From contig VGKK01000001.1 of the NCBI GenBank assembly GCA_016867095.1, forward strand, positions 1 to 41,232: a stretch of DNA of 41,232 nucleotides, in the 5' to 3' direction. This DNA comes from Candidatus Omnitrophota bacterium (GTDB lineage Bacteria > Omnitrophota > Gorgyraeia > Gygaellales > Profunditerraquicolaceae). This document shows, in pieces, positions 17,466 to 36,746 of the stretch. The translations under genes were made by a program, and so were the position numbers. The notes under the pieces are model-generated. The model had not been told where the DNA came from. It searched no databases and was given only the letters and a program-made list of their open reading frames with translations. Position 1 is the stretch's first letter, and every line of letters starts with the position of its first letter.

Positions 17466-17486
17466 TTTAATTGTCGCCTCCTTTAT

Positions 17487-17672
17487 TTATGAACGCCTGC
17501 AACCATGTCCAAAACCGCCACCCCTGCCTGAGCGCGCGTAACCCCTATCTTGTTCAGCCCTGTGTATATTCATACTCTTACATTGCGGACATTCATTGGG
17601 TCTGCCAACTCCATAAGCAATTTCCCATTCATGGTTACAGTCGTAACACTTAAATTTTCTCATGCTATCCAT
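17487..17672 (-). CDS. small zinc-ribbon protein with Gly/Arg-rich tail
   Basis: 61 aa. Has CYDC...CPQC and the tail RSGRGGGFGHGCRRS. A strong SD (AAGGAGGGG) lies 8 nt upstream. Sits between the regulator and rubrerythrin genes. Confidence 0.55.
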   Translation of the reverse strand: MDSMRKFKCYDCNHEWEIAYGVGRPNECPQCKSMNIHRAEQDRGYARSGRGGGFGHGCRRS

Positions 17673-18694: not shown

Positions 18695-19039
18695 TCAATA
18701 ACTTATGAGCCCAGAAAGCATTTTACAAATATCTTCCAATTCGCTCTTAAGCATCGTGCCTTTATCAGCATTAATAAGTCCCTTGCGGCTGTAAATCTCT
18801 AAGATCGGCACACACTCAAACGCAGAACCACGTGCTATCCTGAAAAAATTTATCCTATCTGCCTTATGGTATCTTCCATTTCCTTCGGCGATATTGGTCG
18901 AAATAGATAAAGCCGCTCGATTAAGCTGATCTGCAAGGTAATAATTACCTTTTGCAAAATCTTTCGTTAATTCGCATATCTTATCTGCGAAATTAACGGC
19001 TTTTCGATAAACATCGAGTTTTTCAAATATAAATGCCAT
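18695..19039 (-). CDS. four-helix-bundle protein (23S rRNA intervening-sequence protein family, TIGR02436-like)
   Basis: 114 aa. FEKLDVYRKAVNFADKI...QLNRAALSISTNIAEGNGRYHKADRINFFRIARGSAFE is the family signature. Confidence 0.85.
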   Translation of the reverse strand: MAFIFEKLDVYRKAVNFADKICELTKDFAKGNYYLADQLNRAALSISTNIAEGNGRYHKADRINFFRIARGSAFECVPILEIYSRKGLINADKGTMLKSELEDICKMLSGLISY

Positions 19040-19044
19040 ATTTT

Positions 19045-19119
19045 GAAAATAGAAAATCGAAATTCGACCGAATCGAAAATCTGTCCTCTAATCAAATCTC
19101 AACTCTCGATTTTCGATTC
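19045..19119. repeat. heptamer-built hairpin (word GAAAATC) upstream of the four-helix-bundle gene
   Basis: The left arm reads GAAAATA GAAAATC GAAATTC GACCGAA TCGAAAATC. A perfect 12-bp stem forms between GAATCGAAAATC (19070-19081) and GATTTTCGATTC (19108-19119). Confidence 0.85.
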
Positions 19120-19120
19120 T

Positions 19121-19170
19121 CTGAAAATTTCGGGCTTGTGGTTTGACTCCAAGCCCGAAATTTTCTGCCC
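19121..19170. repeat. tRNA-minihelix-like hairpin, copy 1 (also a likely bidirectional terminator)
   Basis: GAAAATTTCGGGCTTG-TGGTTTGACTC-CAAGCCCGAAATTTTC is a perfect 16-bp stem with a T-loop-like loop. It is ~85% identical to 21033-21079, including the 19-nt exact block AGCCCGAAATTTTCTGCCC. Confidence 0.85.
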
Positions 19171-23220: not shown

Positions 23221-23306
23221 ACAATTCTGTGTAATGTTAAATGTGTAATGTGTAACGCTGGTGTAACGGTTGCCACATTACACGTTACGCTTTAAACGTT
23301 ACACAA
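23221..23306. repeat. word-built imperfect hairpin (word GTGTAAYG) filling the beta-gamma spacer
   Basis: The left arm is GTGTAATGTTAAATGTGTAATGTGTAACGCTGGTGTAACGG. The right arm is CCACATTACACGTTACGCTTTAAACGTTACACAATT. One exact pair is GTGTAACG (23250-23257) with CGTTACAC (23297-23304). Confidence 0.8.
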
Positions 23307-24038: not shown

Positions 24039-24043
24039 TTTCC

Positions 24044-24180
24044 TAAATTACAATAAACAAATTACAAATCACAAACAATATACAATACCAAAATCACAAT
24101 GACCAAATGGTTCCATATGTAATTTTGGTCATTTGATATTTGGATTTGTTTGTAATTTGGAATTTGTGATTTGGGATTTA
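24044..24180. repeat. ACAA/TTGT heptamer-built long hairpin, empty copy (family core CAAAATCACAATGACCAAA)
   Basis: The left arm (24044-24107) is TAAATTACAATAAACAAATTACAAATCACAAACAATATACAATACCAAAATCACAATGACCAAA. The right arm (24124-24180) is TTTGGTCATTTGATATTTGGATTTGTTTGTAATTTGGAATTTGTGATTTGGGATTTA. On the minus strand a 12-codon mini-ORF (MTKITYGTIWSL*, 24094-24132) starts at the arm ATG. Confidence 0.85.
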
Positions 24181-24183
24181 ACA

Positions 24184-25242
24184 TTATAGTTTTTTTATCT
24201 TGCTTATTATTTCTTCCTCTGAGGGAATTCCGCCGCCGGAGCGGCCTAAAAATCCGACTTCTGCCTGGCCGTCAAGCGTTAACCTAACATCCTCCAGCAT
24301 CTGGCCATAAGACATCTCCGCCACTAAAAACTTTACGCGCCTGCGCGCTCGCGAATTGACGAGCCGAAAGGCATTTTCCGGAAACGGCCAGAGAGATATA
24401 GGACGAATTAACCCGACTTTCTTTGCCTTTTCTCTTAACCTTTCCACTGCTGCCCGGCAGATTCTCGCCATTGTCCCGTAAGCTACAATGATTACTTTGG
24501 CGTCGTCTAAAAACAGGCCCTCATAACGCTGCTCTCTTATTTTTATAGTTTTATATTTCTTTTGTAACAAAAGGTTGACCTTCTCTAAGTCGCCCTCTTT
24601 CATATAAAAAGATTTTACGATATTGGGCGTCCTACCTTTACAGCCGGTCAACGCCCACTTTTTATTCTGACGGGTGACGTGGTGACGTGGTGACGTGGTG
24701 ACGTGTAAAGGTTCCATCGTCTGCCCCAGCATCCCGTCGCCCAAAATAATTACGGGATTACGGTACTTATCCGCTAAATCAAAGGCCGCAGGCATAAAAT
24801 CATACGCCTCCTGCACAAAAGAAGGCGCCAAGACGATGCAATGATAATCTCCGTGGCCGCCGCTGCGCGTAGCCTGGAAATAATCGGATTGCGCCGGCCA
24901 GATATTGCCCAGGCCCGGCCCGCCCCGCATCACATCAACAATCACCGCCGGTAATTCCGCGCCTGCCATATAAGAGATGCCTTCCTGCTTCAGGCTGATA
25001 CCCGGGCTTGAAGACGAGGTCATCGCCCTTGCCCCGCAGGCCGCGGCGCCAAAGACCATGTTGATGGCGGCCAGCTCTGATTCTGCCTGGATAAACACCC
25101 CGCCTGCCTGCGGCATATGTCCGGCCATATAGGCGGGGATTTCATTCTGGGGAGTAATAGGGTAGCCGGCATAGAAACGGCAGCCTGCCTGGATCGCTCC
25201 CTCAGCCATTGCCTCGTTACCTGTCATTAATATACGTTTCAT
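24184..25242 (-). CDS. 2-oxoacid:ferredoxin oxidoreductase, alpha subunit
   Basis: 352 aa. MTGNEAMAEGAIQAGCRFYAGYPITPQNEI... is typical of KorA/VorB/PorA N-termini. Substrate not assignable. Confidence 0.9.
   Translation of the reverse strand: MKRILMTGNEAMAEGAIQAGCRFYAGYPITPQNEIPAYMAGHMPQAGGVFIQAESELAAINMVFGAAACGARAMTSSSSPGISLKQEGISYMAGAELPAVIVDVMRGGPGLGNIWPAQSDYFQATRSGGHGDYHCIVLAPSFVQEAYDFMPAAFDLADKYRNPVIILGDGMLGQTMEPLHVTTSPRHHVTRQNKKWALTGCKGRTPNIVKSFYMKEGDLEKVNLLLQKKYKTIKIREQRYEGLFLDDAKVIIVAYGTMARICRAAVERLREKAKKVGLIRPISLWPFPENAFRLVNSRARRRVKFLVAEMSYGQMLEDVRLTLDGQAEVGFLGRSGGGIPSEEEIISKIKKL
24673..24704. repeat. perfect tandem octamer array (GGTGACGT)x4 inside the alpha-subunit CDS
   Basis: Read directly. 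It encodes part of PLHVTTSPRHHVTRQ on the minus strand. Confidence 0.97.
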
Positions 25243-25248
25243 AACGTT

Positions 25249-25330
25249 GTCACCAAGTCACCATGTCACAAGGTCACCCGTTGTTCAATTTTCTGCATTG
25301 CTTTTAGGGGTGACGTAGTGACTTTGTGGC
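25249..25330. repeat. octamer-built hairpin (word GGTGAC) in the delta-alpha spacer; contains the alpha-subunit SD
   Basis: The left arm is GTCACCAA GTCACCAT GTCACAAG GTCACCCG (25249-25280). The right arm is GGGGTGAC GTAGTGAC TTTGTGGC (25307-25330). On the mRNA the last GGUGAC lies 6 nt before the alpha-subunit AUG (25242). Confidence 0.85.
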
Positions 25331-25340
25331 CTGATGCCCC

Positions 25341-25544
25341 TTATTTATACACTTCTACACAGCAATCCGGGCAGATAACCGCGCATAATGTGCAGCCCAA
25401 GCATTCGCCCGTATCTTTGAATTCTACGGCAGCCACTCCCCGTTTATTTAAACCTTTAGCCGCCTTGATGAGCCCTTTGGGGCAAAAGCTCACGCAAAGT
25501 AAGCAACCCTTGCATTTATCTTTATCTATGGTTATTTTAGCCAT
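25341..25544 (-). CDS. 2x[4Fe-4S] ferredoxin-type delta subunit of the oxidoreductase
   Basis: 67 aa. Has CKGCLLCVSFCP and CLGCTLCAVICP. Confidence 0.85.
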   Translation of the reverse strand: MAKITIDKDKCKGCLLCVSFCPKGLIKAAKGLNKRGVAAVEFKDTGECLGCTLCAVICPDCCVEVYK

Positions 25545-25548
25545 ATTA

Positions 25549-27405
25549 TTACCTCGTCAGCAACTTAATCTTATGCGCTATTGCCGCAGCCGTCAACCCA
25601 TATTTTTCCAGGAGGGCCTCTCTTTTTCCGTGCGCGATAAATTCGTCGGGCAGGCCTAATTTGATTGTCGGCCTGCCTATCGCCTCGCTCAGCGCGCTGC
25701 CAAATCCGCCTTCCACAATGCCCTCTTCCGCGGTAAAAATAACTTTTGTTTTTTCGGCCAAGCCCAAAAATAAATCTTTATCCAACGGCTTTACAAAACG
25801 CGCGTTAATCAAGGCGCCTCTTAGGCCTTCCTTAGCTAATAATTCTATCGCTTCTTGAGCCGGCCTTACCATAGAACCTATCGCGGCTATCGCAAAATCC
25901 TTCCCCTCGTTCAAAACTTCCGCCTTCCCAAGCTCAATTTTTGGTGACTTGGTGACTTGGTGACTTGGTGACTTATCTTTAGGATACCTGATAGCCACCG
26001 GCTTATCCAAACCTATGGCAAATTCTAACATCGCCTCCAATTCCTCCCCATCTTTAGGCGCCATAATCACTAAATTGGGGATGCTTCTTAAAAAAGCCAG
26101 GTCAAAAATTCCCTGATGCGTTACGCCATCCTCTCCGACTATGCCTGCCCGGTCAAGGCAAAAAATCACCGGCAGGCCCTGCAGGGCCGCCTCTTCCATA
26201 ATCTGGTCGTAAGCCCTCTGCAAAAAGGTGGAATATACCGCCACTACCGGCTTAAGGCCTATTTTTGCCAGGCCCGCGGCAAAGCATACCGCATGTTGTT
26301 CGGCAATGCCCACATCAAAAAATCTTTCCGGATAGGCATCGCGGAATTTATCCAGGCCTGTGCCTTCGGGCATGGCCGCGGTAACGGCAACAATCTTTTT
26401 ATCCTCCCGGGCCAAATCCACTAATTTCCGGCTAAAGACTTCGGTATAAGTGGGACTTTGTATCCCCTCTTTAGGCAAGGCCTGCCCGCTCTTTATATCA
26501 AAGCGTCCGGCGCCATGGAACCTGACCGGGTCGCTTTCCGCCGGAAGATAACCTTTGCCTTTCTTGGTGACCACATGCAGCAACCTCGGCCCTTTAATAT
26601 ACAAGATATTCTTTAGCGTCGGCACTAAAACATTTAAGTCATGGCCGTCAATAGGCCCGAAATAACGGAATCCCAATTCCTCAAAAAACATTCCCGGGAC
26701 AAACAATCCTTTTAAGCCCTCTTCAAATTTATTGGCGATTTTTATCAGGCGGCTCCCTTTAGGCAGGCGCGACTTGGCAAAACCCTCCAAAGACCCCTTA
26801 AAACGATTGTATATCGGTAAAGAGATGAGTTTATTCAGGTATGTGCTTAAAGCGCCGACATTGGGGGCGATACTCAATTCATTGGTATTTAAAATAACTA
26901 AAATATCTTTCTTGAGGTGGCCGGTATTATTCAGCCCCTCAAAACACAAACCCCCGCTTAAAGAGCCGTCGCCGATTACCGCCACTACTTTAAAATGCTG
27001 CCCCGCCCCCAGGCTGTCCCTGGCGCAGGCCAAACCCAAGGCCAAAGATACCGCAGTTGAGCTATGGCCAGTAGTAAAAGTATCGTAAGCCGACTCTGCG
27101 TAAGACGGGAATCCGCTCACGCCCTGATATTGACGAAGGCTGGAAAAATCCTTGTTTCGTCCGGTTAAAATTTTATGCGCGTAGGCCTGGTGGCCGACGT
27201 CAAAGATTATTTTATCTTCGGGGCAATTTAAACAATAATGCAGCGCCACAATCAGCTCCACCGCGCCCAGGCTTGAGGCGAGGTGCCCCCCCGAAGAAGA
27301 AACTACCTCAATCATCCGCTCTCTAATTTCAGCGGCTAATTGCGGCAGCTTTTCCAAGGAAAGTTTTTTTAAATCCTGGGGTGAATTAATCTGGTCTAAT
27401 ATCAT
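25549..27405 (-). CDS. dxs: 1-deoxy-D-xylulose-5-phosphate synthase
   Basis: 618 aa. Has GGHLASSLGAVELIVALH, DVGHQAYAHKILTGR, the TPP motif GDGSLSGGLCFEGLNN, and DVGIAEQHAV. Confidence 0.93.
   Translation of the reverse strand: MILDQINSPQDLKKLSLEKLPQLAAEIRERMIEVVSSSGGHLASSLGAVELIVALHYCLNCPEDKIIFDVGHQAYAHKILTGRNKDFSSLRQYQGVSGFPSYAESAYDTFTTGHSSTAVSLALGLACARDSLGAGQHFKVVAVIGDGSLSGGLCFEGLNNTGHLKKDILVILNTNELSIAPNVGALSTYLNKLISLPIYNRFKGSLEGFAKSRLPKGSRLIKIANKFEEGLKGLFVPGMFFEELGFRYFGPIDGHDLNVLVPTLKNILYIKGPRLLHVVTKKGKGYLPAESDPVRFHGAGRFDIKSGQALPKEGIQSPTYTEVFSRKLVDLAREDKKIVAVTAAMPEGTGLDKFRDAYPERFFDVGIAEQHAVCFAAGLAKIGLKPVVAVYSTFLQRAYDQIMEEAALQGLPVIFCLDRAGIVGEDGVTHQGIFDLAFLRSIPNLVIMAPKDGEELEAMLEFAIGLDKPVAIRYPKDKSPSHQVTKSPKIELGKAEVLNEGKDFAIAAIGSMVRPAQEAIELLAKEGLRGALINARFVKPLDKDLFLGLAEKTKVIFTAEEGIVEGGFGSALSEAIGRPTIKLGLPDEFIAHGKREALLEKYGLTAAAIAHKIKLLTR
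25943..25974. repeat. perfect tandem octamer array (GGTGACTT)x4 inside the dxs CDS
   Basis: Read directly. It encodes part of YPKDKSPSHQVTKSPKIELGK on the minus strand. Confidence 0.97.
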
Positions 27406-27656
27406 TAACTTTCGCCTTCGGCAGGCTCATCCTCAAACTTTTCTAAAGAAAATTTGGCGTCCTTCTTGGCCAACAATTCAACCTTACGCTGGGCCTCATT
27501 GAGGGCATGGGAACAGCCCTGGGCAAGCTTTATTCCTTCTTCGTATTTTTTCAGCGAATCCCCCAGGCTCAGCTTTCCGCCGGATAATTCTTCCACGATT
27601 TTTTGTAAGCGCCTGATATCCTCTTCAAAGGACTGTTTATCTTTTGTCATCTTCAA
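27405..27656 (-). CDS. xseB: exodeoxyribonuclease VII small subunit
   Basis: 83 aa. FEEDIRRLQKIVEELSGGKLSLGDSLKKYEEGIKLAQGC is the typical XseB pattern. Confidence 0.85.
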   Translation of the reverse strand: MKMTKDKQSFEEDIRRLQKIVEELSGGKLSLGDSLKKYEEGIKLAQGCSHALNEAQRKVELLAKKDAKFSLEKFEDEPAEGES

Positions 27657-28848
27657 TTACCTCCTGTACCGTGCCTAAGAAAGAACCTTTCTTTAGCATA
27701 GTCTTGACTAAATCGCCGGCCTTAAGCTCGGCGGCATCTTTAACCACCGCGCCATTACTGACAAGCGTGCTCAAACTATAACCCCGCGACAAAACTGCCA
27801 GGGGGCTCAGCGCCTCTAATCTCTTTATCAGAGAAAGGGCCCTTTCATTCGCGATACTCAAGCAATGCCTGATATGGCTAAGTAATGCTGTGCTTAATTC
27901 ATCAAGCAGCTGCTGTTTCTCCAACAGCCTGTCCAGGGGGCTTTTTAACATATGCCTTAAGGCAATCAAGTTATTTTTCAAGCCCTGGATGACAGCCGTT
28001 ACTGAAGAAATAAGCTCGTATTTATAGCTTTCTAATTCCGACAAGAGTTTATTTTTTTTATCTACAATAATCTTTGCCGCTGCCGAGGGCGTTTCCACAA
28101 AAACATCCGCCACTAAATCTGATAGCGTGGTGTTAATCTGATGGCCTACGGCGGAAATCGTGGGGATTGTGGAATTATAAATCGCGCGCGCGATGACCTC
28201 TTCGTTAAAAGCCCAAAGGTCCTCGGTACTTCCTCCTCCGCGGCTGATAATGATTACATCTACTTCTTTAAACCGGTTAAAATCTTCCACCCCTTCGGCT
28301 ATCTCTAGCGCCGCGCCTTCCCCTTGCACGCGCGCTGAACGGATAATGACGTCAACGCAGGGAGCCCCTTTTTTTAAAATCTGCAGGATATCCCGCACTG
28401 CCGCGCCGGCGCTGGAAGTAACAATCCCGGCCCGAAACGGCATAAGCGGCAGAGGCTTCTTATGTGCCGGATCAAATAACCCCTCTTTTAACAGCCTGTT
28501 TTTTAACTGCTCAAAGGCCAGCTGCTGCGCGCCTACGCCTTTAGGTTCAATGCTCTCCACGATTAACTGGTATTGCCCGCGGGGCGGATAAATATCTACT
28601 TTACCAAAGCAGATTACCTTCAGGCCGTCTTCTATTTTAAACTTGAGCTGGCGGTTCGCCCGCACAAACATCGCCGCGGATAAAACCGCGTCCTTATCTT
28701 TTAAGGTAAAATAAAAATGCCCGGAAGTAGCTGCCCGGAAATTAGAAATCTCGCCCTCTACCCAAACCTCGCCAAAGGTATTCTCCAGGATAATCTTTAT
28801 GTCCTGGGTAATTTCGGAGACAGTATAGATATGCCGGGATTTTTCCAT
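27637..28848 (-). CDS. xseA: exodeoxyribonuclease VII large subunit
   Basis: 403 aa. Has an N-terminal OB fold (VWVEGEISNFRAATSGHFYFTLKD), a catalytic region (IISRGGGSTEDLWAFNEE) and a coiled-coil tail. Confidence 0.9.
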   Translation of the reverse strand: MEKSRHIYTVSEITQDIKIILENTFGEVWVEGEISNFRAATSGHFYFTLKDKDAVLSAAMFVRANRQLKFKIEDGLKVICFGKVDIYPPRGQYQLIVESIEPKGVGAQQLAFEQLKNRLLKEGLFDPAHKKPLPLMPFRAGIVTSSAGAAVRDILQILKKGAPCVDVIIRSARVQGEGAALEIAEGVEDFNRFKEVDVIIISRGGGSTEDLWAFNEEVIARAIYNSTIPTISAVGHQINTTLSDLVADVFVETPSAAAKIIVDKKNKLLSELESYKYELISSVTAVIQGLKNNLIALRHMLKSPLDRLLEKQQLLDELSTALLSHIRHCLSIANERALSLIKRLEALSPLAVLSRGYSLSTLVSNGAVVKDAAELKAGDLVKTMLKKGSFLGTVQEVIEDDKR

Positions 28849-28853
28849 TTATA

Positions 28854-30749
28854 CTATTCTTTTTTTACTTGCGTGGCAGCTGTAGTATCAGACGTTTTCT
28901 CTGCGGGCTGAGCCGCATCCGTCACTTGGGCTGGGGCCTGCGGCGCAACTGCTTCCGGCTCCCTGGGTTTTGGCTTTAAGATAATCAAATTAACCGAATA
29001 AGGGGCCAGGGTCAATATCTCTTCATATAAATCAGCGGCCGGATGGATTTCTTTTTCTTCTGCGGGAATAAATTTGCAATTACTGCTGCAGGAGGAATCT
29101 ACGAGGTACCTCTGGTAGAGGTAATTCTCCTTAAGGTTCTTAATGCCTAATTTTAAATTACGGCTGGCGGACTTGAATTTTGCCGCCCTATCGCTTAATT
29201 CCTTGGCTTTTTTCAATACGGCCCTTGTTTTACCCGTCAGTGCTAAACGGGAAGGCTCTAATTGGCCCTGCATAATCCTGTCCAGCCTGTCCGTCTTAAT
29301 CAAGTTTAATAACGCCTTTCTCTCCGCGCTCTTTAGGCTGCCGAGGACCCTGGATAAATAACCTATTACGGCCTCCGGGTCAATATAATTATAAATTAAT
29401 AGCGCGACGCTGTCTTTGCCCTGGGTGGCGATGACCCCGCAAAACTCATCCTTAAATTTATCCGAAGACAAAAACAGGTTATCCCCCAAAAGCCCCAGCA
29501 TCCGGAAAGTATTGTAACTGGCCTTGGGCCCGCCCTTGTATTCGGAAGATTCAGAATCAAACCAAAAGATGCCTGTATTTCTGATTACGCCTTCCTTGTT
29601 GTTCTGGAAATCTTCCAGGGAAAAATAAAGCTGGTAACTAAGCCCGGCCTCGCGCATATTCCTTAAGCGGGCGGGAATATAGCTGGCCGCGATAAAAGAC
29701 TCCTCTTTTCTTTCCGGCAAGACATTTATGCCCCGGTCATAATTCCATTCATCAACAATAAGGGGGGTATTCTTGTCAAAACGAAAATAGGTCAGCCAAT
29801 CCCGGACCAGGCTGACCGAAAACTTATTATAAATAGTGGCCTGCTTCTCTGCCTGGGGGTCGCTGGAAAAGCCGTGCCAGCTGATAAAGTCTAACGGCAG
29901 CCGGTTTCTGTGGCAAAATTGAATGAGTTCGTAAATCAGGCTTCTCTCCGGGGTAACAATGGTATTGCCGTCAAAATTCTGGAACCACCAGCTGGTGCTC
30001 GGGCCGCCCAGGGGAATATGTATTTTCGTCTCTGCCTCTAATTCCTTTACTGCCTCGGCGATTGCGCGGTATAAATTAAGGTATTCCTGTTTCCGGCCTA
30101 AAAAGAAATCCTCTAAATCCGGCGCGCTCCAGACTTCATACCAGATATTATACTTTTTGTCGCAGCTTAAATGCCGGATATGGCGCTTGATTAGATCTTT
30201 AAACGCCTTTAAATTCTGGGGCAGGCTTCTTTTATCCAGCACCTTGCCCAAGCCCGCAGGCGTGCCGAATATATCCAGGATGACTGTCCCGCCCGCCTCA
30301 TTAATATTGCTGATTATCTTTTCATAATTGCCTAATAAGCTGTTCTGTAAATTTTTATTTTTGGTGAACTGGCTAATCTCCCAGAAATTATACTGGATAC
30401 GGTAGAGCCCTTTAAAACCGACGGCCTTTTGCCACTCATCAATGGCTGCGCTTGCCGCTATCTGCTGCGGCCAGATGCTGTCGCGATGGAACCCCCGGCC
30501 GCTTAAATCAATATTCGGCCGGAAAATATTCGGCAAGGGGACGGTCGCGGAGGCAATGTCTAAAGTAAATTCTAATTCATCGGATTGCTGGCCGTAAGAA
30601 GGATAAATTCCAATACACAATACACAAATTACAAACAATACCAAAATCACAATACCAAAACTACGTATAAATTCTCCTGTTTTGGTCATTGTAATTTTGA
30701 AATTGGAATTTGTTTGTGATTTGTAATTTGTAATTTGGAAATTAGACAT
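28854..30749 (-). CDS. secreted clan GH-A-like (beta/alpha)8 glycoside-hydrolase-fold protein; start uncertain (30749 or 30689; the ORF track maximum is 30800)
   Basis: Has a hydrophobic signal/anchor FGIVILVLFVICVLCIGIY. NIWYEVWSAPDLEDFF occupies the place of the WE(V/I)WNEP acid/base motif, and PLIVDEWNYD is a nucleophile-like motif. The tail is Pro/Ala/Gln-rich. ATG 30749 overlaps the ymdB stop (TATAATGTCTAA). Confidence 0.55.
   Translation of the reverse strand: MSNFQITNYKSQTNSNFKITMTKTGEFIRSFGIVILVLFVICVLCIGIYPSYGQQSDELEFTLDIASATVPLPNIFRPNIDLSGRGFHRDSIWPQQIAASAAIDEWQKAVGFKGLYRIQYNFWEISQFTKNKNLQNSLLGNYEKIISNINEAGGTVILDIFGTPAGLGKVLDKRSLPQNLKAFKDLIKRHIRHLSCDKKYNIWYEVWSAPDLEDFFLGRKQEYLNLYRAIAEAVKELEAETKIHIPLGGPSTSWWFQNFDGNTIVTPERSLIYELIQFCHRNRLPLDFISWHGFSSDPQAEKQATIYNKFSVSLVRDWLTYFRFDKNTPLIVDEWNYDRGINVLPERKEESFIAASYIPARLRNMREAGLSYQLYFSLEDFQNNKEGVIRNTGIFWFDSESSEYKGGPKASYNTFRMLGLLGDNLFLSSDKFKDEFCGVIATQGKDSVALLIYNYIDPEAVIGYLSRVLGSLKSAERKALLNLIKTDRLDRIMQGQLEPSRLALTGKTRAVLKKAKELSDRAAKFKSASRNLKLGIKNLKENYLYQRYLVDSSCSSNCKFIPAEEKEIHPAADLYEEILTLAPYSVNLIILKPKPREPEAVAPQAPAQVTDAAQPAEKTSDTTAATQVKKE
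30608..30741. repeat. ACAA/TTGT heptamer-built long hairpin, copy overlapping the start of the GH-like gene
   Basis: The plus-strand left arm (30608-30660) is TTCCAATACACAATACACAAATTACAAACAATACCAAAATCACAATACCAAAA. The right arm (30680-30741) is TTTTGGTCATTGTAATTTTGAAATTGGAATTTGTTTGTGATTTGTAATTTGTAATTTGGAAA. The 16-nt block CAAAATTACAATGACC is identical to the copy at 36264-36279. Confidence 0.85.
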
Positions 30750-31527
30750 TATATTTTTTCTGTATTCTAACAATGGCCCTTGCTTTTCCGGTATCCTCAT
30801 TAATATCTAAAACCGCGCCCTGCAGTTGAATATTTTCCGTGGCCACCTCAAAGCGCTTAGGCACTGAGGTCAGGAACCTTTCTAAAACATCCTCTACTTT
30901 CCTGCCGATGACCGAATCCAGCGGACCGGTCATACCCACATCCGTAATGTAGGCGGTGCCTTGCGGCAGAATCCGCTCATCCGCGGTCTGCACGTGGGTA
31001 TGCGTGCCTAAAACCGCGGAGACCAAGCCGTCTAAATACCAGCCCAGGGCCACTTTTTCGGAAGTAGCCTCGGCATGGATATCCACAATGATCACTTTTG
31101 TATCTTTGACTAACGCCTCCTGCGCCTGGCGGGTGCCCCTAAAAGGGCACTCCAGTGCCTCCAGAAAAACCCGGCCTTGCGCGTTCACCACGCCTATTTT
31201 CAGGCCATTGGCCGCCTTAAATAACCCCCATCCCTGCCCTGGCGCGCCTGCGGGAAAATTTACCGGCCTTAAAATCCTATCCTCCTGATTAATAATCTCT
31301 AAGACTTCCCTCTTCTTCCAAATGTGGTCTCCGGAAGTAAGCACATCTAATCCGCCGGCAAATAATTCTTCGGCTACTTGCGGCGTAATCCCTGAGCCGC
31401 CGGCGGCATTCTCGGCGTTGGCAATGCTAAAATCCAGGTTAAACTCTTTTTTTAAACCCGGCAGGAGCTTCTTTATCGCCTCCCTGCCCGGAGAACCCAC
31501 TATGTCACCAATAAATAAAATATTCAT
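30742..31527 (-). CDS. ymdB: YmdB-like metallophosphoesterase (TIGR00282 family)
   Basis: 261 aa. Has MNILFIGDIVGSPGR, NAENAAGGSGIT and GTHTHVQTADE. Lies directly downstream of rny, as in Firmicutes. Confidence 0.85.
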   Translation of the reverse strand: MNILFIGDIVGSPGREAIKKLLPGLKKEFNLDFSIANAENAAGGSGITPQVAEELFAGGLDVLTSGDHIWKKREVLEIINQEDRILRPVNFPAGAPGQGWGLFKAANGLKIGVVNAQGRVFLEALECPFRGTRQAQEALVKDTKVIIVDIHAEATSEKVALGWYLDGLVSAVLGTHTHVQTADERILPQGTAYITDVGMTGPLDSVIGRKVEDVLERFLTSVPKRFEVATENIQLQGAVLDINEDTGKARAIVRIQKKYNV

Positions 31528-31537
31528 TGCATACCCT

Positions 31538-31706
31538 GGTTACGCTATTCGGCTACGGTTACGATGCCCGTTTCGTTAAGAGGTTAGGTATAGCGTTTGA
31601 AATGTTGGCCGGTGAACGAGTGAGCCGGTGAACCGGTTAACTGGCAAACCGGTTAACCCGCTAACCTTTTTACGATACGGGCTTCGTTGCCTTAACCGTT
31701 ACCTAA
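31538..31706. repeat. word-built structured spacer (words GGTTACG / CCGGTGAAC / AACCGGTTAAC) between rny and ymdB
   Basis: The inverted pair TTACGATGCCCGTTTCGTTAA (31559-31579) and TTACGATACGGGCTTCGTT (31670-31688) is 14/16 complementary in its core. GGTTAGGTA pairs with TACCTAATCC. The centre has two CCGGTGAAC and two AACCGGTTAAC palindromes. Confidence 0.75.
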
Positions 31707-31708
31707 TC

Positions 31709-33265
31709 CTATTTAGCGTATTCTATCGCTCTAGTTTCCCTGATTACTGTCACCTTAATCTGCCCGGGATACTCCATACCTTCTTCTATTTTTTTGCGGA
31801 TATCCCGCGCCATATTAATCGCCTCGCTGTCCGTAATCTTTTCGGGCTGCACAATAACCCGGATCTCGCGGCCGGCCTGGATGACAAAAGATTTTTCTAC
31901 GCCCTTAAAAACATTGGCGATGGACTCCAGTTTCTCCAGCCTCTTAATATAGGTCTCTAATGTTTCGCGCCTTGCCCCGGGCCTGGAGGCGCTGATGCCA
32001 TCCGCGGCCACGGCTAAAACCGCGTAGAGGCTCTGGGGCGCGGCCTCCTCGTGATGGGATTCTATCGCCTGCACCACTTCCTGCGGCTCGTTATATTTTC
32101 TGGCAAGGTCTGCCCCGATTTTAGCGTGCGTGCCTTCTACCTGGTGGTCAACCGCCTTGCCGATATCGTGCAGCAGGCCGACGCGCCGGGCCATACGAAA
32201 GTCCAGCCCTATCTCCGAAGCCAAGGCGCCCAAAATAAAAGAAACTTCCTTGGAATGCTGCAGGGCATTCTGGCCAAAGCTGGTGCGGTATCTCAACCGG
32301 CCAAGGAGCTTAATCAGCTCCGGATGCAAGCCGTTAACCCCGGCCTCAAAGGCGGCATGTTCGCCCTCTTCGCGGATTTTGTCTTCCATCTCCTTTTGGG
32401 TCTTCTCTACTATCTCTTCAATCCTTCCCGGATGGATTCTGCCGTCGGAAATAAGCTTTTCCAAACTGATACGCGCTATTTCCCGGCGCACAGTATCAAA
32501 ACTAGACAAGGTAACCGCCTCCGGCGTATCATCAATAATCACATCCACGCCGGTGGCCATTTCAAAGGCGCGGATATTCCTTCCTTCCCTGCCGATGACC
32601 CTGCCCTTCATCTCGTCGCCGGGCAAATTGACCACGCTCACCGTGGATTCTACCGTATGCTCCACCGCGCACTTCTGGATACTCAGGCTGACTATTTCCC
32701 TGGCCTTTTTCTCCGCCGCGCTGCGCATCTCTTCTTCCTGCCGCCTGATGAGCACCGCCTTTTCCATACTCAACTCCTCATTCAAACGGCTGAGTAAAAT
32801 CTGCTTTGCTTCTTCGGCGGACAAGGAAGCGATCTTCTGCAATCTTTCCTTCTCTTCGGCAATCAGGGCGTGGAGCTGATTATCCTTTGCCTTTATGGCA
32901 TCTTCCTGTTTTTTTACGTTATCCAGCTTTAGGCCGATTTCCTTTTCCTTTGCCTCTAAAAGGCCGAGCCGGCGGTCAATATTCTCTTCCTTCTGCGCCA
33001 GCCTTTTTTCTAAATTGGCAATTTCCTGGCGCCGGTCTTTGGTCTCGCGCTCAAAATCCTGGCGCATGCGGTAGAGCAGGTCTTTTGCCTCCAGCTCTAC
33101 TTCGCGCTTACGGTCCTGCGTCTGTTTTTTGGCCTCTTCTAAGATTTGCCTGGCCTTTTCTTCGGCATCCTGAATCTTTTTTTCCGCTATATATTTCCTT
33201 AATGCATAACCGGCATACACCGAGATTAACGCCACAACTATGGAAAATACAATTGTATTTAACAT
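31709..33265 (-). CDS. rny: ribonuclease Y
   Basis: 518 aa. Has an N-terminal TM helix, a coiled coil, a KH domain (GREGRNIRAFEMATGVDVIIDD) and an HD domain (LLHDIGKAVDHQVEGTHAKIG). Confidence 0.93.
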   Translation of the reverse strand: MLNTIVFSIVVALISVYAGYALRKYIAEKKIQDAEEKARQILEEAKKQTQDRKREVELEAKDLLYRMRQDFERETKDRRQEIANLEKRLAQKEENIDRRLGLLEAKEKEIGLKLDNVKKQEDAIKAKDNQLHALIAEEKERLQKIASLSAEEAKQILLSRLNEELSMEKAVLIRRQEEEMRSAAEKKAREIVSLSIQKCAVEHTVESTVSVVNLPGDEMKGRVIGREGRNIRAFEMATGVDVIIDDTPEAVTLSSFDTVRREIARISLEKLISDGRIHPGRIEEIVEKTQKEMEDKIREEGEHAAFEAGVNGLHPELIKLLGRLRYRTSFGQNALQHSKEVSFILGALASEIGLDFRMARRVGLLHDIGKAVDHQVEGTHAKIGADLARKYNEPQEVVQAIESHHEEAAPQSLYAVLAVAADGISASRPGARRETLETYIKRLEKLESIANVFKGVEKSFVIQAGREIRVIVQPEKITDSEAINMARDIRKKIEEGMEYPGQIKVTVIRETRAIEYAK

Positions 33266-33346
33266 CGCTTAAACGACCTCCTTCGATGAAATTGCTGGCG
33301 GTGAAAATTTGGACCGATAAATTACAGGTTAGGCCCTTATGTTTGA

Positions 33347-33961
33347 CTAGGCAAAGATGACTTTATTGACGCAGATATCTCTTTTGGTGGCGGGGATGCT
33401 CGGTAAGATTTGGAAATCAAATGCCAGGGCAACAGCCGGTATTCTCCGGGGTAACTTACGCAAAAAATAATCGTAGCAGCCTTTACCGCGGCCTAAACGG
33501 TTGCCTTTTTTATCAAAGGCGACTCCTGGCACAATCACAAGGCCTAAGTCCTCTAAATTAATCGTTTCTTTTATCGCGGGTTCGCATACCCCGTAAGGGC
33601 CTTTTTTAAGCCTGGCCCTCTCGGAGAATACGCAGGGCTTGATTGCTCTTTTTTTGCCGCAAACCGGAACCGCGACTATCTTACCTAATTTTAAAGCTTC
33701 CTCTATCATTCTTTTTGTGTTTACCTCGCCATCAAACGAGAGATAAAACATCACTGTCTTTGCCTTTTGAAAAAGTTGCGTCCGAAAAAGCTTATCCTTA
33801 ATTAACCCGCTTTTTCTTTCTCGTTCCTCCTCCTTCTGTGATTTTAACTTAAGTAAGAGTTTACTACGGATTTGCTGCTTTGTCAACCCCGTTACAATTT
33901 TTACCACACGGCTGGCATTCCCAAAATTGGCTATGATGTCAAATTTTGCCTTTGGTTTCAT
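33347..33961 (-). CDS. 5-formyltetrahydrofolate cyclo-ligase (MTHFS) with a ~45-aa N-terminal extension or a later true start
   Basis: 204 aa. Has VMFYLSFDGEVNT and IVPGVAFDKKGNRLGRGKGCYDYFL, the MTHFS signature. Confidence 0.8.
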   Translation of the reverse strand: MKPKAKFDIIANFGNASRVVKIVTGLTKQQIRSKLLLKLKSQKEEERERKSGLIKDKLFRTQLFQKAKTVMFYLSFDGEVNTKRMIEEALKLGKIVAVPVCGKKRAIKPCVFSERARLKKGPYGVCEPAIKETINLEDLGLVIVPGVAFDKKGNRLGRGKGCYDYFLRKLPRRIPAVALAFDFQILPSIPATKRDICVNKVIFA

Positions 33962-34009
33962 TTTAAGGGCTTTCTCAGAAATTGTAACGGGGTCAATGCC
34001 ACATAGATA

Positions 34010-34132
34010 GCACCGTTTGCTAATTCAATCTTGCAGCGTTTACGAATTTAATCTCGTAACTGTACCCTCTGCCTAGGTACACTTACAATCTTAAATTTAA
34101 AAACGTTACCCGATTGGGTTTGCAAACGGTGC
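34010..34132. repeat. structured spacer with nested inverted repeats between iscU and the MTHFS gene
   Basis: The outer pair is perfect and 11 bp long: GCACCGTTTGC (34010-34020) with GCAAACGGTGC (34122-34132). Both members are followed by TAATT. The inner pair is TGTACC (34061-34066) with GGTACA (34076-34081). GTAACG/CGTTAC words recur. Confidence 0.75.
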
Positions 34133-34141
34133 TAATTTAAT

Positions 34142-34630
34142 TTAATGTTCGTGGGCGTCGGCCTTGGGCTCTCCCGTCCCATGTTGATGATTCTCGGGCG
34201 GGATCCCGTCCGCGCCTGAAATATCTGGACGGGAAAAGGCGCTGGGGTCTTTGCCGATTTTCTTGTAGTAATCCGCTAAGGCTGCCCGAAGCGCCTGCTC
34301 GGCCAAAACCGAACAGTGCATTTTTATGGCCGGCAAGCCCCCTAAGGCCTCAGCTACCGCCTTATTGGAAATTTTCAGCGCCTCTTCAATGGTCTTGCCC
34401 TTGACCATTTCGGTAACCATTGAGCTGGTCGCAATAGCCGCGCCACACCCCATAGTTTTAAACTTAGCATCAACAATTATGTTATTCTCAACCTTAATAT
34501 ACATCTTCATAATGTCGCCACAGATAGCATTTCCAACAGTGCCTACGCCATTGGCATCGGGAATTTCTCCGACATTCTTCGGATGCATAAAATTTTCCAT
34601 CACTTTTTCGCTGTAATTTAAATCGCTCAT
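34142..34630 (-). CDS. iscU: Fe-S cluster scaffold, IscU/NifU N-terminal domain family
   Basis: 162 aa. Has the three scaffold Cys contexts NAICGDIMK, GCGAAIATSS and HCSVLA. The C-terminal tail is His/acid-rich. Confidence 0.85.
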   Translation of the reverse strand: MSDLNYSEKVMENFMHPKNVGEIPDANGVGTVGNAICGDIMKMYIKVENNIIVDAKFKTMGCGAAIATSSMVTEMVKGKTIEEALKISNKAVAEALGGLPAIKMHCSVLAEQALRAALADYYKKIGKDPSAFSRPDISGADGIPPENHQHGTGEPKADAHEH

Positions 34631-34650
34631 ATTAATGAGGAATCATTATG

Positions 34651-34848
34651 AAATCACCAATAACCAAGATACAATTACCAAACAAATTCTCCCGACAAAG
34701 TCGGGATCCCGCTAAATTTTAATTTTAGCGCGGGACAATATTCAATAACCAATCACCAAATAAAATCTCTAAGAACGCCGCGTTTGGCTATTGAGATTTG
34801 GTTATTGGTTATTGTTTGGTTATTGGAACTTGGAATTCGGTTATTTCG
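34651..34848. repeat. three-arm word-built element (word AATAACCAA / TTGGTTATT) upstream of iscU
   Basis: Two same-sense arms lie at 34651-34690 and 34736-34770, both ACCAA-rich. One complementary arm lies at 34792-34848 (GAGATTTGGTTATTGGTTATTGTTTGGTTATTGG...). Two small GC hairpins sit between the same-sense arms: CCCGAC-AAA-GTCGGG (34691-34705), and 34708-34734. Confidence 0.8.
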
Positions 34849-34852
34849 TGCT

Positions 34853-35515
34853 TTAGATTTTGTCATCTGTCATTACCATTTTATGTGGTTTTAGGCCTTT
34901 TTTATAGTCCTTCGGGCTTTGTACTTTTTTTAACGTATCCAGTTTTTTACGCTTTTCTAATTCCTGGTAAATTAACACCCAGGCGCAATCTTTGTCCTTA
35001 TCCACCTCGCACTTACCTTTATTCATCCCGCCGCAAGGGCCGTTTAATAATCCCTTGGCGCAAAGCGTAATCGGGCAAATGCCGCCGGTAACATCCAAGA
35101 CACATTCTCCGCAAAGAGAACATTTTTCATAAAAATTACCCTGGGCATCCATTACCGCGCCGAATAAGGTATTGCAGGCGGGTATGGCTACTAAGCCCAG
35201 CCGGTCATTATCCTTGACTGATTGCACTCCCAAGCCGCAGGCCAAAACTAAAATTGCCTCAGCTTCGCGCCAGGCCTTTGTATTCTTGGCTATTTCGGTC
35301 TTGATTTGGCTGGCCACGCAAGGCGCGGAAGGAATACACATCCCCACTACGGTTTTACCCTGCGCCTCTAACAGCGCTTTCATTTCGGCCAATTCCGGCT
35401 CTCCGCCGGTCTTAGCGGTAGCGGCGCACTCGCCGCAGCCGACCAGGAATATCTTAGTATAGCCTTTTAAGCTATCTATAATCTGCTGAATGGGTTTCTG
35501 CTCTGTGATAATCAT
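34853..35515 (-). CDS. MetV-like protein (methylenetetrahydrofolate reductase C-terminal-domain family)
   Basis: 220 aa. CSLCGECVLDVTGGICPITLCAKGLLNGPCGGMNKGKCEVDKDKDCAW is the MTHFR_C/MetV Cys pattern. Confidence 0.7.
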   Translation of the reverse strand: MIITEQKPIQQIIDSLKGYTKIFLVGCGECAATAKTGGEPELAEMKALLEAQGKTVVGMCIPSAPCVASQIKTEIAKNTKAWREAEAILVLACGLGVQSVKDNDRLGLVAIPACNTLFGAVMDAQGNFYEKCSLCGECVLDVTGGICPITLCAKGLLNGPCGGMNKGKCEVDKDKDCAWVLIYQELEKRKKLDTLKKVQSPKDYKKGLKPHKMVMTDDKI

Positions 35516-36080
35516 CTTAGTCTCTTTAAATATTTGAGATCTTCCGAATCCTTAGGCCGACCAGCCGCGCGTTTCATTTTTATAAGATCCTTTAAGGAAG
35601 CAAAGTAAACGAAAGTGCCGCCAAATTTTGCTCTTACTTTATTTTTCCACGCCTCCTCAAAGGTTATGCCTTTTACAAAAGGATGAATATCTGTCTCTAC
35701 CGCATACTGCCGAATGAGTAATTTCTTCTGAAGCAATTCTTCTATTTTAATATCGGCTACTAAATGCCTTTAAAGCTTGCCATGTCTTTTCGGCGTTGGC
35801 TATAGTTGGCCTAATAAAAATATCAATATCTAAAGTTGCGCGGGCATATCCATGAACTGGAAAAGCGGTCGCGCCAATAATTACGAAATCTACCCTATGT
35901 TCTTTTAATGATTTCAGAAGGTTTTCGGCGTCCATTTTTTCTTAATAGACCGGCCATTTCTTTTGATTTTTTAAACATCATCTCAAAGCGTTCTTTAAGC
36001 GAAAGCGATTGCAAAAATCTTAATTCAAACTCAATTTCTTTTGCCTGATTATGCCTGCTTAACTTTAGAATCATCGTCAT
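35512..36080 (-). pseudogene. minimal nucleotidyltransferase-fold (MNT/AbiEii-like) gene split over three reading frames
   Basis: Three ORFs, 35895..36080, 35747..35935 and 35512..35736, follow each other in frames 2, 1 and 0. The middle piece has VDFVIIGATAFPVHGYARATLDIDIFI (NTase G[SA]...DxD). The last piece ends with LKDLIKMKRAAGRPKDSEDLKYL. The first junction lies in an A6 run (plus-strand T6 at 35935-35940). Confidence 0.5.
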
Positions 36081-36215
36081 TTACTCCTACTTCCATTTTA
36101 CATAGATTTTTGGAAGTATCAAGGAAATTTAAGGCGGGATTAAAACAAAGGGGCGCCTCTGTATTTGGCCTTTTTTGGGCTGATAGACCGTGAAAGGCAG
36201 GACGCCCCTTTTATT

Positions 36216-36692
36216 AAATAACAAATTCCAAATCACAAATTACAAACAATATACAAATCCAAAATTACAATGACCGAAACTTCTCTATTGTGCCTTGCAA
36301 ATAATAGCGGTAAATATATTCCTCAACTCTTGCGATTCTTTAATAAACGTAATGATTTCCCCTGTGAAGCCTGATTGGCTTGCTTTAATAGTTCTAACCA
36401 ATAGCTGCTTTCCTTGCATTCCTTTCTTGTAATCTTCATTCTATGTATAAAATCCTTCTTGCTTAATGCCTCATTTGCCTCTCTGTAATTTGCGCCCACG
36501 GAACCGGAGGCATCTATTAGTTGGCCAATTAATCTTAAGTTAATCACGTCTTTTGGCAACTTACCGCATAACCTAATTATCCCTTTGGAAAATTCCAAAG
36601 TCCTTTCTTCTAAATTATATATTTTGCTTTGGTATTCGGTCATTTGGTATTGTAATTTGTTTGTAATTTGTATATTGTGTATTGTGATTTAA
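36216..36692. mobile_element. IVS-like cassette: ACAA/TTGT long inverted repeat with a four-helix-bundle gene as loop cargo
   Basis: The left arm (36216-36279) is ...CCAAATCACAAATTACAAACAATATACAAATCCAAAATTACAATGACCGAAA. The right arm (36635-36692) is TTCGGTCATTTGGTATTGTAATTTGTTTGTAATTTGTATATTGTGTATTGTGATTTAA. The inner ends are ATGACCGAA and TTCGGTCAT. The arms are homologous to the elements at 24044-24180 and 30608-30741. Calling it mobile is an inference. Confidence 0.6.
36323..36643 (-). CDS. four-helix-bundle protein (23S rRNA intervening-sequence protein family)
   Basis: 106 aa. LEERTLEFSKGIIRLCGKLP...QLIDASGSVGANYREANEALSKKDFIHRMKITRKECKESSYWLELL is the family signature. Its start codon ATGACCGAA is the inner end of the repeat arm. 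Confidence 0.85.
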   Translation of the reverse strand: MTEYQSKIYNLEERTLEFSKGIIRLCGKLPKDVINLRLIGQLIDASGSVGANYREANEALSKKDFIHRMKITRKECKESSYWLELLKQANQASQGKSLRLLKNRKS

Positions 36693-36746
36693 CCTCTACC
36701 ACTATAATAGACGTGGTTACCCATCAAATCTAACACCTATTTTTTA

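Follow-up and report, generated by a model that had tools for sequence, protein, structure and literature searches.

The stretch of DNA considered here, the window, comprises 41,232 nucleotides of contig VGKK01000001.1 from a Candidatus Omnitrophota bacterium. The question which it raises is why three long hairpins of like appearance should lie between its protein genes, one of them empty (hairpin A, 24043-24181), one fused to the start of a gene for a GH39-like exported protein (hairpin B, 30604-30744) and one enclosing a whole gene of its own, that for a four-helix-bundle protein (element C, 36213-36693). The original prediction saw in them a portable leader and start-codon cassette that can accept cargo. 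What emerges instead is that A, B and C are probably copies of a selfish repeat of wide occurrence, palindromic elements of the type known from ribosomal RNA (rRNA) as intervening sequences (IVSs), here resident in mRNA operons, with gene-less derivatives akin to miniature inverted-repeat transposable elements (MITEs) and with one copy domesticated by its host.

Homology, anatomy and orientation of the hairpins

The three hairpins are homologous. When arm is compared with arm, the Smith-Waterman scores among A(+), B(-) and C(+) lie between 71 and 75 (z ~12), against a maximum of 40 over 100 dinucleotide shuffles and a best score of 51 from some 70 other AC-rich arms that flank genes of the family found in C (PF05635). 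The true homology originally proposed is therefore borne out, and the likeness goes beyond composition in that it survives the correction by dinucleotide shuffling. The collinear blocks CCAAATCACAAATT and CAAATTACAAACAA are present in the arms as had been described. The 16-mer CAAAATTACAATGACC is also shared, being exact at 30684-30699 (minus) and 36260-36275 (plus) and matching at 15 of 16 positions at 24089-24104 (plus), although the first two of these sites lie 3-4 nt from where they had been placed.

Underlying these blocks is a regular syntax, in which CAA recurs each 7 nt in the A/C-rich 5' arm and TTG each 7 nt in the T/G-rich 3' arm. The spacing 7,7,7,4,7,6,8, where the 4 marks a central CAAACAA, is common to A, B and C, and its 7,7,7,4 part is found again in a fourth hairpin, D (34650-34847). 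After CAAACAA the 5' arm runs through two or three further heptamers and then reaches an ATG. Heptamer-spaced CAA/TTG runs occur at exactly these four hairpins in the 41 kb window, where shuffled sequence gives 0.02 runs. The 7-nt periodic, conserved CAA motif suggests, from its sequence, an array bound by a protein.

In terms of anatomy, hairpin A (inverted repeat I3, to which no strand is assigned) is a gene-less copy with arms at ~24043-24108 and 24123-24181 and the apex motifs ATGACCAAA / TTTGGTCAT. It is placed between the korA stop codon (24184-24186) and the ribosome-binding site and start of korB, and its gene-sense strand, by arm homology, is the minus. Hairpin B, likewise without assigned strand and delimited from its fold, its orientation class and the junctions of orthologs, contains the ymdB stop codon (30742-30744) in the base of its stem. 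Element C, on the minus strand (inverted repeat I2 and an arm-on-arm fold), is the complete copy, whose arms of ~60 nt (36213-36279 and 36634-36693) bracket the four-helix-bundle gene; it is flanked by a 1494-amino-acid open reading frame (ORF) and by small ORFs. By an inverted-repeat finder the arms of A and C measure 50 nt and are 72-76% complementary, with C at 76% and its arms 379 nt apart. Folded as RNA, both strands of A and B reach energies between -40 and -45 kcal/mol, at z values from -4.5 to -6.5 (-4.5 and -6.5 for A, -5.7 and -6.0 for B), none of 200 shuffles being as stable, while the minimum-energy fold of element C closes arm on arm around a 380-nt loop (z = -2.4). In the predicted folds the ATG is paired inside the stem.

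It had been held that all three hairpins have the same polarity relative to transcription. This is uninformative, since any hairpin whose 5' arm is rich in A and C and whose 3' arm is rich in G and T looks alike on either strand. Orientation is instead revealed by the imperfections of the arms, which group A+ with B- and C+ on the one hand and A- with B+ and C- on the other, so that B runs in the opposite direction to A and C. In this regard, the homolog in element C of the ATG available to the GH39-like gene is the mirror ATG antisense to the four-helix gene, and not the start of the four-helix gene itself.

The gene within element C

The gene of element C (36285-36643, minus) belongs by profile matches to the protein family of 23S rRNA intervening sequences, at 1.6e-15 for Pfam PF05635 and 3.1e-19 for TIGR02436, the latter above cut-off; the nearest solved structure to its product is 2RLD. 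That it starts at the arm-borne ATG at 36643, as first suggested, is confirmed, the ATG and the first codons lying inside the 5' arm. In other words, the core ACAATGACCRAA of the arms is the beginning of the gene (ATGACCRAA, Met-Thr-Lys/Glu), mirrored in the 3' arm as TTYGGTCAT. A start of MTK or MTE is found in 48 of the 120 closest homologs, and the N-terminal tails of the homologs, which are short and variable, abound in K, N, P, T and Q, as would follow if A/C-rich arm sequence encodes them.

Homologs of the protein are ~119 amino acids long (~120 codons). In the window a 1-nt deletion near 36372 shifts the frame, such that the open frame is now 36323-36643 (106 amino acids) and the homologous C-terminus is read from a different frame, whose TAG stop (36285-36287) comes 5 nt ahead of the 3' arm. 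The gene is also found on three shorter contigs, from two Joint Genome Institute (JGI) metagenomes and one public sequencing run, which are 99.98-100% identical to the window. The 106-amino-acid product is thus identical on four contigs, and for this reason an assembly error is unlikely. No remnants of the gene are seen elsewhere in the window or in the empty loops.

Occurrence in other genomes

Further copies, the search for which the original prediction had proposed, are found in other genomes and in differing contexts. A protein-based scan of species-representative genomes with the four-helix gene gave 80 loci, 74 of them with enough flanking sequence for a test of arms, from Omnitrophota, many lineages of the Candidate Phyla Radiation (CPR)/Patescibacteria, Nitrospirota, Desulfobacterota, Planctomycetota and others. 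Of the 74 genes, 66 stand between inverted repeats that score above shuffled sequence, 48 of these being strong, and from the side of the gene the association with a hairpin is accordingly near-obligate. Across this set the median arm length is 47.5 nt and the 5' arm ends at a median of 6.5 nt upstream of the ATG; A makes up 56% and G 5% of the 5' arm, T 56% and C 4% of the 3' arm. The 7-nt spacing seen in the window is general, with peaks of 222 and 223 counts for CAA and TTG respectively, against 5 in an upstream coding control. Complementarity has a median of 36 between arms of the same locus, compared with 23.5 between arms of different loci and 15 for distal flanks, from which it is seen that the arms are partly a shared vocabulary and partly locus-specific palindromes.

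These loci are flanked by long ORFs, none lies in rRNA, and the neighbours of the four-helix gene are on its own strand in 68 of 76 cases upstream and 63 of 71 downstream, with gaps of about arm length. The elements, in other words, are found outside rRNA, in the very short gaps that separate operon genes of one direction, and the gene usually points the same way as its neighbours.

A scan at the DNA level, in which metagenomes were searched with the 19-mer CAAAATYACAATGACCRAA, matched at least 119 contigs, of which 80 were fetched. Some 55 of the 80 prove to be heptamer hairpins, whose loops (13-120 nt) vary and are unrelated in sequence. The gene is present in a single one of the 80 (L123), where it is on the opposite strand as in C; gene-less copies far outnumber gene-carrying ones among the 80 fetched of the at least 119. 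Moreover, in four copies (L004, L005, L007 and L123) arms and gene alike can be aligned with those of C, the homology ending at TAAAT...ATTTA with unrelated flanks beyond, and it follows that the unit of arms and gene has entered different contexts.

Insertion is also apparent when the window is compared with two syntenic relatives of 20 kb, L211 and L212. The gene order of the window, in which nearly all genes are on the minus strand, is gltX, korG, korB, korA, korD, dxs, xseB, xseA, the GH39-like gene, ymdB, rny (RNase Y), the gene for 5-formyltetrahydrofolate (5-FTHF) cyclo-ligase, nifU and an MTHFR-C-like gene. L212 keeps the whole of this order without these hairpins, its genes abutting or overlapping where the window has A, D and a further hairpin at 34008-34134. 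L211 is also without A, C and D, and has unrelated hairpins at korA-korB (a short one) and at korB-korG. At the D site of both relatives the stop codon and the next start abut or are 1 nt apart, and A, C, D and the 34008-34134 hairpin are all missing from both. The hairpins can therefore be dispensed with, and are lineage-specific insertions that fall exactly between one stop codon and the next start.

A hairpin arm as signal peptide

The GH39-like gene (28854-30689, minus; Pfam PF01229) is called in public data as a 611-amino-acid product starting at 30689 (P0121), and the protein is predicted to be exported. It had been suggested that the arm-borne ATG may start this gene. Position 30689 is indeed in frame with it, but the ATG concerned is the mirror ATG, and the in-frame start at 30749 is also possible; the GT-rich arm is translated in either case. 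The translated part of that arm (30603-30659, minus) reads FGIVILVLFVICVLCIGIY, which is the only hydrophobic segment available to the protein as a signal peptide or anchor, and it is preceded by MTKTGEFIRS, contributed by the apex ATG and the loop of B.

That a palindrome can be read in this manner has a simple basis in the genetic code. A/C-rich codons specify Lys, Asn, Gln, Thr and Pro, and their complements Phe, Leu, Val, Ile, Gly, Cys and Trp; because the two sets differ in polarity, an asymmetric hairpin reads polar and then hydrophobic in either orientation. These complementary codon classes explain how a palindromic repeat can supply a working signal peptide.

The GH39-like gene lies in a conserved Omnitrophota neighbourhood, rny-ymdB-GH39-xseA-xseB-dxs, and an N-terminal signal peptide that ends in ..FAQ before a conserved (D/E)LEFTLD is seen in all 120 of the orthologs listed. 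Many of these N-termini read like translated hairpins, for example MTKSKIQNKSKIP...LSFGICALYLFCYLCFGICHLSFAQ and KSQIPNSKSQ...WNLEFICNLVLVIW; depending on the cut-off, between 32 and 51 of the 120 are extended, by sequence in which K, S, I, N and Q abound. Among eight distinct DNA sequences of the YmdB-GH39 junction (the window and seven orthologs), six have a full hairpin whose 3' arm encodes the signal peptide. In L203 and L207-L210 the junction hairpin folds at -42 to -55 kcal/mol and its 3' arm encodes the hydrophobic and cleavage regions. In the closest relative (L204/L211) the junction hairpin is decayed, and in L205/L212 it is missing, there being a 40-nt spacer and an ordinary signal peptide. 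Nor is the GH39-like gene the sole instance, since a hairpin with the same 19-mer shares the reading frame of a lipobox-bearing M48 peptidase in L147. Judged from these sequences, copy B has very probably been domesticated, its apex ATG, loop and GT-rich arm together providing the GH39-like protein with a start codon and with the basic n-region and hydrophobic core of its signal peptide. The use of one hairpin copy as a source of start codon and N-terminus for a host gene, a part of the original prediction, is in this form very probably correct, given the orthologs and the junction DNA.

Relation to known elements

Element C is compared most directly with the IVS of 23S rRNA and its S23p ORF, as found in Leptospira, Coxiella, Xanthomonas, Brucella and CPR. 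Common to both are the PF05635 family, terminal inverted repeats that form a stem, and an ORF in the sense orientation of the host transcript. In Coxiella the S23p ORF lies inside a 28-bp stem that is cleaved by RNase III, with tandem GACAGAT heptamers right before the ATG (PMC4990558). A weak or absent ribosome-binding site and heptamers immediately upstream of the ATG are a further likeness, as is the frequent decay of the ORF, which is frameshifted in C and under reductive evolution in Coxiella (PMC4990558). PF05635 ORFs are also present in rRNA insertions of CPR bacteria (PMC11270868). The differences are those of habitat and of form. The elements of the window lie between protein genes of operons and not in helix 25 or 45 of 23S rRNA; indeed, an Rfam scan of the window finds nothing at the hairpins, its sole match being one tRNA, with no rRNA. 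Their arms of ~50-65 nt are about twice the length of the 28-bp stem, and they are strictly A/C-rich on one side and G/T-rich on the other, with the CAA-heptamer syntax. Moreover, gene-less copies are abundant here, and one copy is translated within a host protein.

The gene-less copies have their own parallels in MITE-like and other extragenic palindromic repeats (ERIC/IRU, RU-1/RU-2, Correia, REP/BIME), which are likewise short non-coding hairpin repeats in many copies, found in the intergenic spacers of operons, co-transcribed, and occasionally in frame within genes. As with MITEs, there are many dispersed inverted-repeat copies too short to encode a protein, and presence and absence are polymorphic at orthologous sites. 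The family of the window differs from MITE and REP elements in that its full-length form encodes a four-helix protein and neither a transposase nor a RAYT, no target-site duplication being evident at its AT-rich ends, which could hide a short one; its arms, moreover, are variable heptamer words rather than one conserved sequence, and it spans many phyla.

Two other systems share single features. Avd is a four-helix-bundle protein that forms pentamers, with nucleic acid and a reverse transcriptase as its binding partners. As the accessory protein of diversity-generating retroelements (DGRs) it belongs to PF05635 (PMC10053308), but no reverse transcriptase or pair of template and variable repeats stands beside the genes examined here, the neighbours are housekeeping genes, and the protein of the window fits the IVS-type model TIGR02436. 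TAACTGA heptanucleotide direct repeats are found upstream of start codons in marine Beggiatoaceae and some cyanobacteria, and are comparable in that arrays of a 7-nt unit in intergenic spacers end a few nt from a start codon (PMC4679880). They differ in being direct repeats of another unit sequence, with no complementary downstream arm and no PF05635 gene in that report.

Certain assignments can be set aside. An intrinsic terminator is excluded by anatomy, since the stems are of ~60 bp with ~25% G:C pairs and offer no GC-rich stem followed by a U run, A being followed on the mRNA strand by AGGAAATTGATTATG. An integron attC cassette is excluded on the same grounds, no integrase being seen. For a DGR, there is no reverse-transcriptase domain among the scanned neighbours in the window or the called neighbours on the source contig, and the arms of C are the only repeat pair around C.

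Origin and possible function

Taken together, these findings are better matched by an autonomous element from which gene-less forms derive than by an empty acceptor to which a gene was added later. On this basis A and B would be non-autonomous, MITE-like derivatives of gene-carrying elements, in which both apex motifs are kept. Since the elements lie in operon spacers and the gene is co-oriented, the four-helix gene is probably transcribed by read-through from the operon. In the transcript the arms would pair as an imperfect duplex of ~55-60 bp that conceals the ATG, such that the gene would be translatable mainly on nascent RNA, before the 3' arm exists. RNase III excision without religation is known for the IVSs of Coxiella, Salmonella and Leptospira (PMC4990558); by analogy, RNase III would cleave the arm duplex here and so cut the polycistronic message at the junction.

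Several observations weigh against this account. The arms are only 72-76% complementary by the inverted-repeat finder, and the complementarity between arms of different loci is well above the distal-flank background, which means that much of the pairing comes from a shared vocabulary of words. Mismatches of the G:U type number 118 in sense and 110 in antisense, which does not separate a role of the RNA from one of the DNA, and among five orthologous YmdB-GH39 hairpins there are no compensatory changes in 51 predicted pairs, the only conserved pairing being of CAAA/TTTG blocks. Full-length copies encode no transposase, only the four-helix protein of ~120 amino acids, and no direct repeat indicative of target-site duplication is shared at the ends of C, L004, L005, L007 and L123, where AT-rich ends could hide one of 2-3 nt. 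In the window itself the PF05635 gene is frameshifted and the start of the GH39-like gene is a choice between two positions. Finally, whether gene deletion or gene capture gave rise to the gene-less forms is read from their distribution, and the cleavage of these hairpins by RNase III is drawn from analogy only.

These difficulties give room to other explanations, of which the cassette of the original prediction has its empty form coming first, with start-less genes afterwards taken up by the loop and expressed by way of the arm's ATG. In its favour are the ATG kept in empty copies, the wide variation in content and length of the loops, the arm ATG that is in frame with two different host genes (the GH39-like gene and, in L147, the M48 peptidase), and the variable K/N/Q/T-rich N-terminal tails of the four-helix proteins, which look as if encoded by the arm. 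The portability that was claimed is indeed supported. The acceptance of cargo is another matter, since PF05635 is the only loop-borne gene in 160 loci, 80 selected by protein and 80 by DNA, and full-length homologs show gene and arms to be inherited as a unit. Furthermore, the fusions to host genes are not cargo of the loop but readings through the 3' arm into a pre-existing downstream gene, and the GH39-like gene uses the mirror ATG, which is not the homolog of the four-helix start. Capture in this form is decidedly unlikely. It is also unlikely, albeit slightly less so, that the hairpins are regulatory RNA structures of the host, which would process or stabilise the message or couple translation at operon junctions and be kept because the operon needs them. 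Their position exactly at cistron junctions with the ribosome-binding site of the next gene intact, their very stable folds, the persistence of the YmdB-GH39 hairpin over several lineages and the occurrence of differing hairpin families at the same junctions across genomes (korA-korB in L211, korB-korG in the window and L211) would all accord with such a role. What tells against it is that L212 has the same 20-kb gene order without any of these hairpins, its genes abutting or overlapping, that there is neither covariation nor strand bias in wobble pairs, and that the same element occurs in unrelated contexts, in one form with a gene of its own.

A third alternative denies that there is a discrete element at all, and holds that the arms are heptamer microsatellites grown by slippage, made complementary by quasi-palindrome template switching, such that A, B and C are alike by convergence. 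The word-by-word variation of the arms and their cross-locus complementarity well above background are as such a process would leave them, in-frame arrays of like words are found in linkers of KorA and DXS, both in the window and in its relatives, and heptamer copy number differs among Coxiella strains (PMC4990558). Against convergence stand the conserved spacing 7,7,7,4,7,6,8 of A, B and C, the 7,7,7,4 part of it recurring in D; the far greater likeness of A, B and C to one another than to other arms of equal composition; the exact 19-mer on at least 119 contigs; and the sharp boundaries of homology with unrelated flanks. Convergence is accordingly very improbable, although slippage and template switching probably do remodel the arms after insertion; they cannot explain the family. 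Lastly, the gene-less hairpins might encode small hydrophobic peptides in the manner of type I toxins, with Met-Thr-Lys, the loop and a membrane helix from the GT-rich arm, the start codon being hidden. Many copies do open an ORF of 15-40 codons that ends rich in Phe/Leu/Val/Ile/Cys/Gly, the ATG is paired within the stem, and the mini-ORF of 12 codons that had been described in hairpin A is present at 24094-24132 (minus). This mini-ORF is, however, not conserved and bears no sign of coding selection. Over 40 distinct related hairpins the frame open from the ATG has a median of 19 codons against 17 in the +2 frame, with many stopping after 3-7, and in hairpin A the open frame has 7 codons when one strand is read and 12 when the other is; the ATG has no ribosome-binding site ahead of it. 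A coding role for the gene-less copies is scarcely credible.

With the IVS-type element as the preferred account, a further step may be considered. As a matter of speculation, the obvious candidate to bind the CAA array is the element's own pentamer-forming protein. It is possible, though on balance doubtful, that PF05635 proteins are the trans-acting factor of a very large class of heptamer-armed hairpins not described to date, binding CAA arrays and driving either the spread of the element or the fate of the RNA, with the 23S IVS as the rRNA-resident minority and with the family as a recurrent source of signal peptides. If this were true, the class would reside mainly at the junctions of operon genes, in Omnitrophota, CPR and further uncultured phyla.

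The components of this picture, namely IVSs with S23p ORFs, palindromic MITE-like repeats and repeats that contribute to signal peptides, are known. In the literature consulted, which mostly excludes subscription journals such that a prior description is possible, there is no account of a gene-in-hairpin unit common at operon junctions across phyla, nor of the heptamer syntax, of abundant gene-less derivatives or of repeated use to code for the signal peptide of a conserved gene. The 23S rRNA IVS and its S23p ORF have been without an accepted function or origin for ~30 years (PMC4990558). With a gene-in-hairpin unit that is common between operon genes in many phyla, the IVS can be treated as one habitat of a broader family of elements, and the old question of its function and origin becomes testable. 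There is also a practical consequence for annotation, in that gene callers start or extend ORFs inside such hairpins in Omnitrophota and CPR genomes.

Other hairpins and features of the window

Hairpin D (inverted repeats I5, I7 and I9, with no strand assigned) is of a different subfamily, with the words AATAACC and AAGATAC, and lies between the MTHFR-C-like gene and nifU. Its loop (34686-34811) contains a further half-arm rich in G and T, together with two short stem-loops of GC-rich sequence, TCCCGCGCT...AGCGGGA and TCCCGAC...GTCGGGA, which suggests nested insertions. Unrelated GC-rich repeats are likewise present in the loops of several metagenomic copies (for example L100 and L110). In L086 (contig PVMS01031836.1) three copies of the 19-mer core occur within 300 nt at 2193-2499, with two near-identical units of ~79 nt that face each other in inverted orientation across a loop of 166 nt (score 104); the element may be composite or the product of a duplication.

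The window has other hairpins of different composition. That at 34008-34134, between nifU and the 5-FTHF cyclo-ligase gene, has 59-nt arms of 76% complementarity and a 9-nt loop, with no CAA heptamers; in L211 and L212, where it is missing, the two genes overlap or stand 9 nt apart. An imperfect hairpin at 19038-19128 (30-nt arms, 73% complementary) is made of CGAAA/TCGAT-type words and resembles the CGAAA-word arms of some metagenomic copies, such as L098 and L113. At the korB-korG junction (23229-23297) the asymmetry is reversed, the 5' arm on the mRNA strand being GT-rich and the 3' arm AC-rich, with the words GTAACGT / ACGTTAC. At the orthologous junction of L211 (~17460-17575) the words are complementarily changed on both arms (TTAATGT / ACATTAA), in what looks like a compensatory, concerted change at the level of the word, and the AC-rich arm has a copy at the dxs-korD junction ~2.2 kb upstream.

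Three arrays of a GTCACC-type 8-mer, at 24670-24702 (in korA), 25249-25281 (just upstream of the korA start) and 25943-25972 (in dxs), are mutually 88-90% complementary over distances of 546 and 664 nt. Two of them are in frame in variable inter-domain linkers, giving HVTTSPRHHVTRQ in KorA and SPSHQVTKSPK in DXS. Relatives hold other word-like peptides at these linker positions, and SPGHQVTRSP occurs in the N-termini of some GH39-like orthologs.

The window as a whole has a G+C content of ~44%, and the nearest public relatives of its proteins are in Candidatus Omnitrophota metagenome-assembled genomes. Directly upstream of element C, the 1494-amino-acid ORF (36747-41231, minus) has internal repeats and no Pfam match, and is missing from the syntenic relatives. 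On its other side, between element C and the MTHFR-C-like gene, are ~700 nt (35516-36212) with two small called ORFs of 59 and 74 amino acids, seen also in L001. These have no counterpart in L211 and L212, where a RarA/MgsA-like gene sits upstream instead, and the stretch may be a separate insertion. At 36140-36210 there is a GGGGCG...CGCCCC inverted repeat and then a T-rich stretch. The 300-nt gap between dxs and korA holds, at ~25295-25545 (minus), a small ORF like a 4Fe-4S ferredoxin (MAKITIDKDKCKGCLLCVSFCP...), which was missed by the 80-amino-acid ORF listing and is the counterpart of the 67-amino-acid Fer4 gene called in L212.

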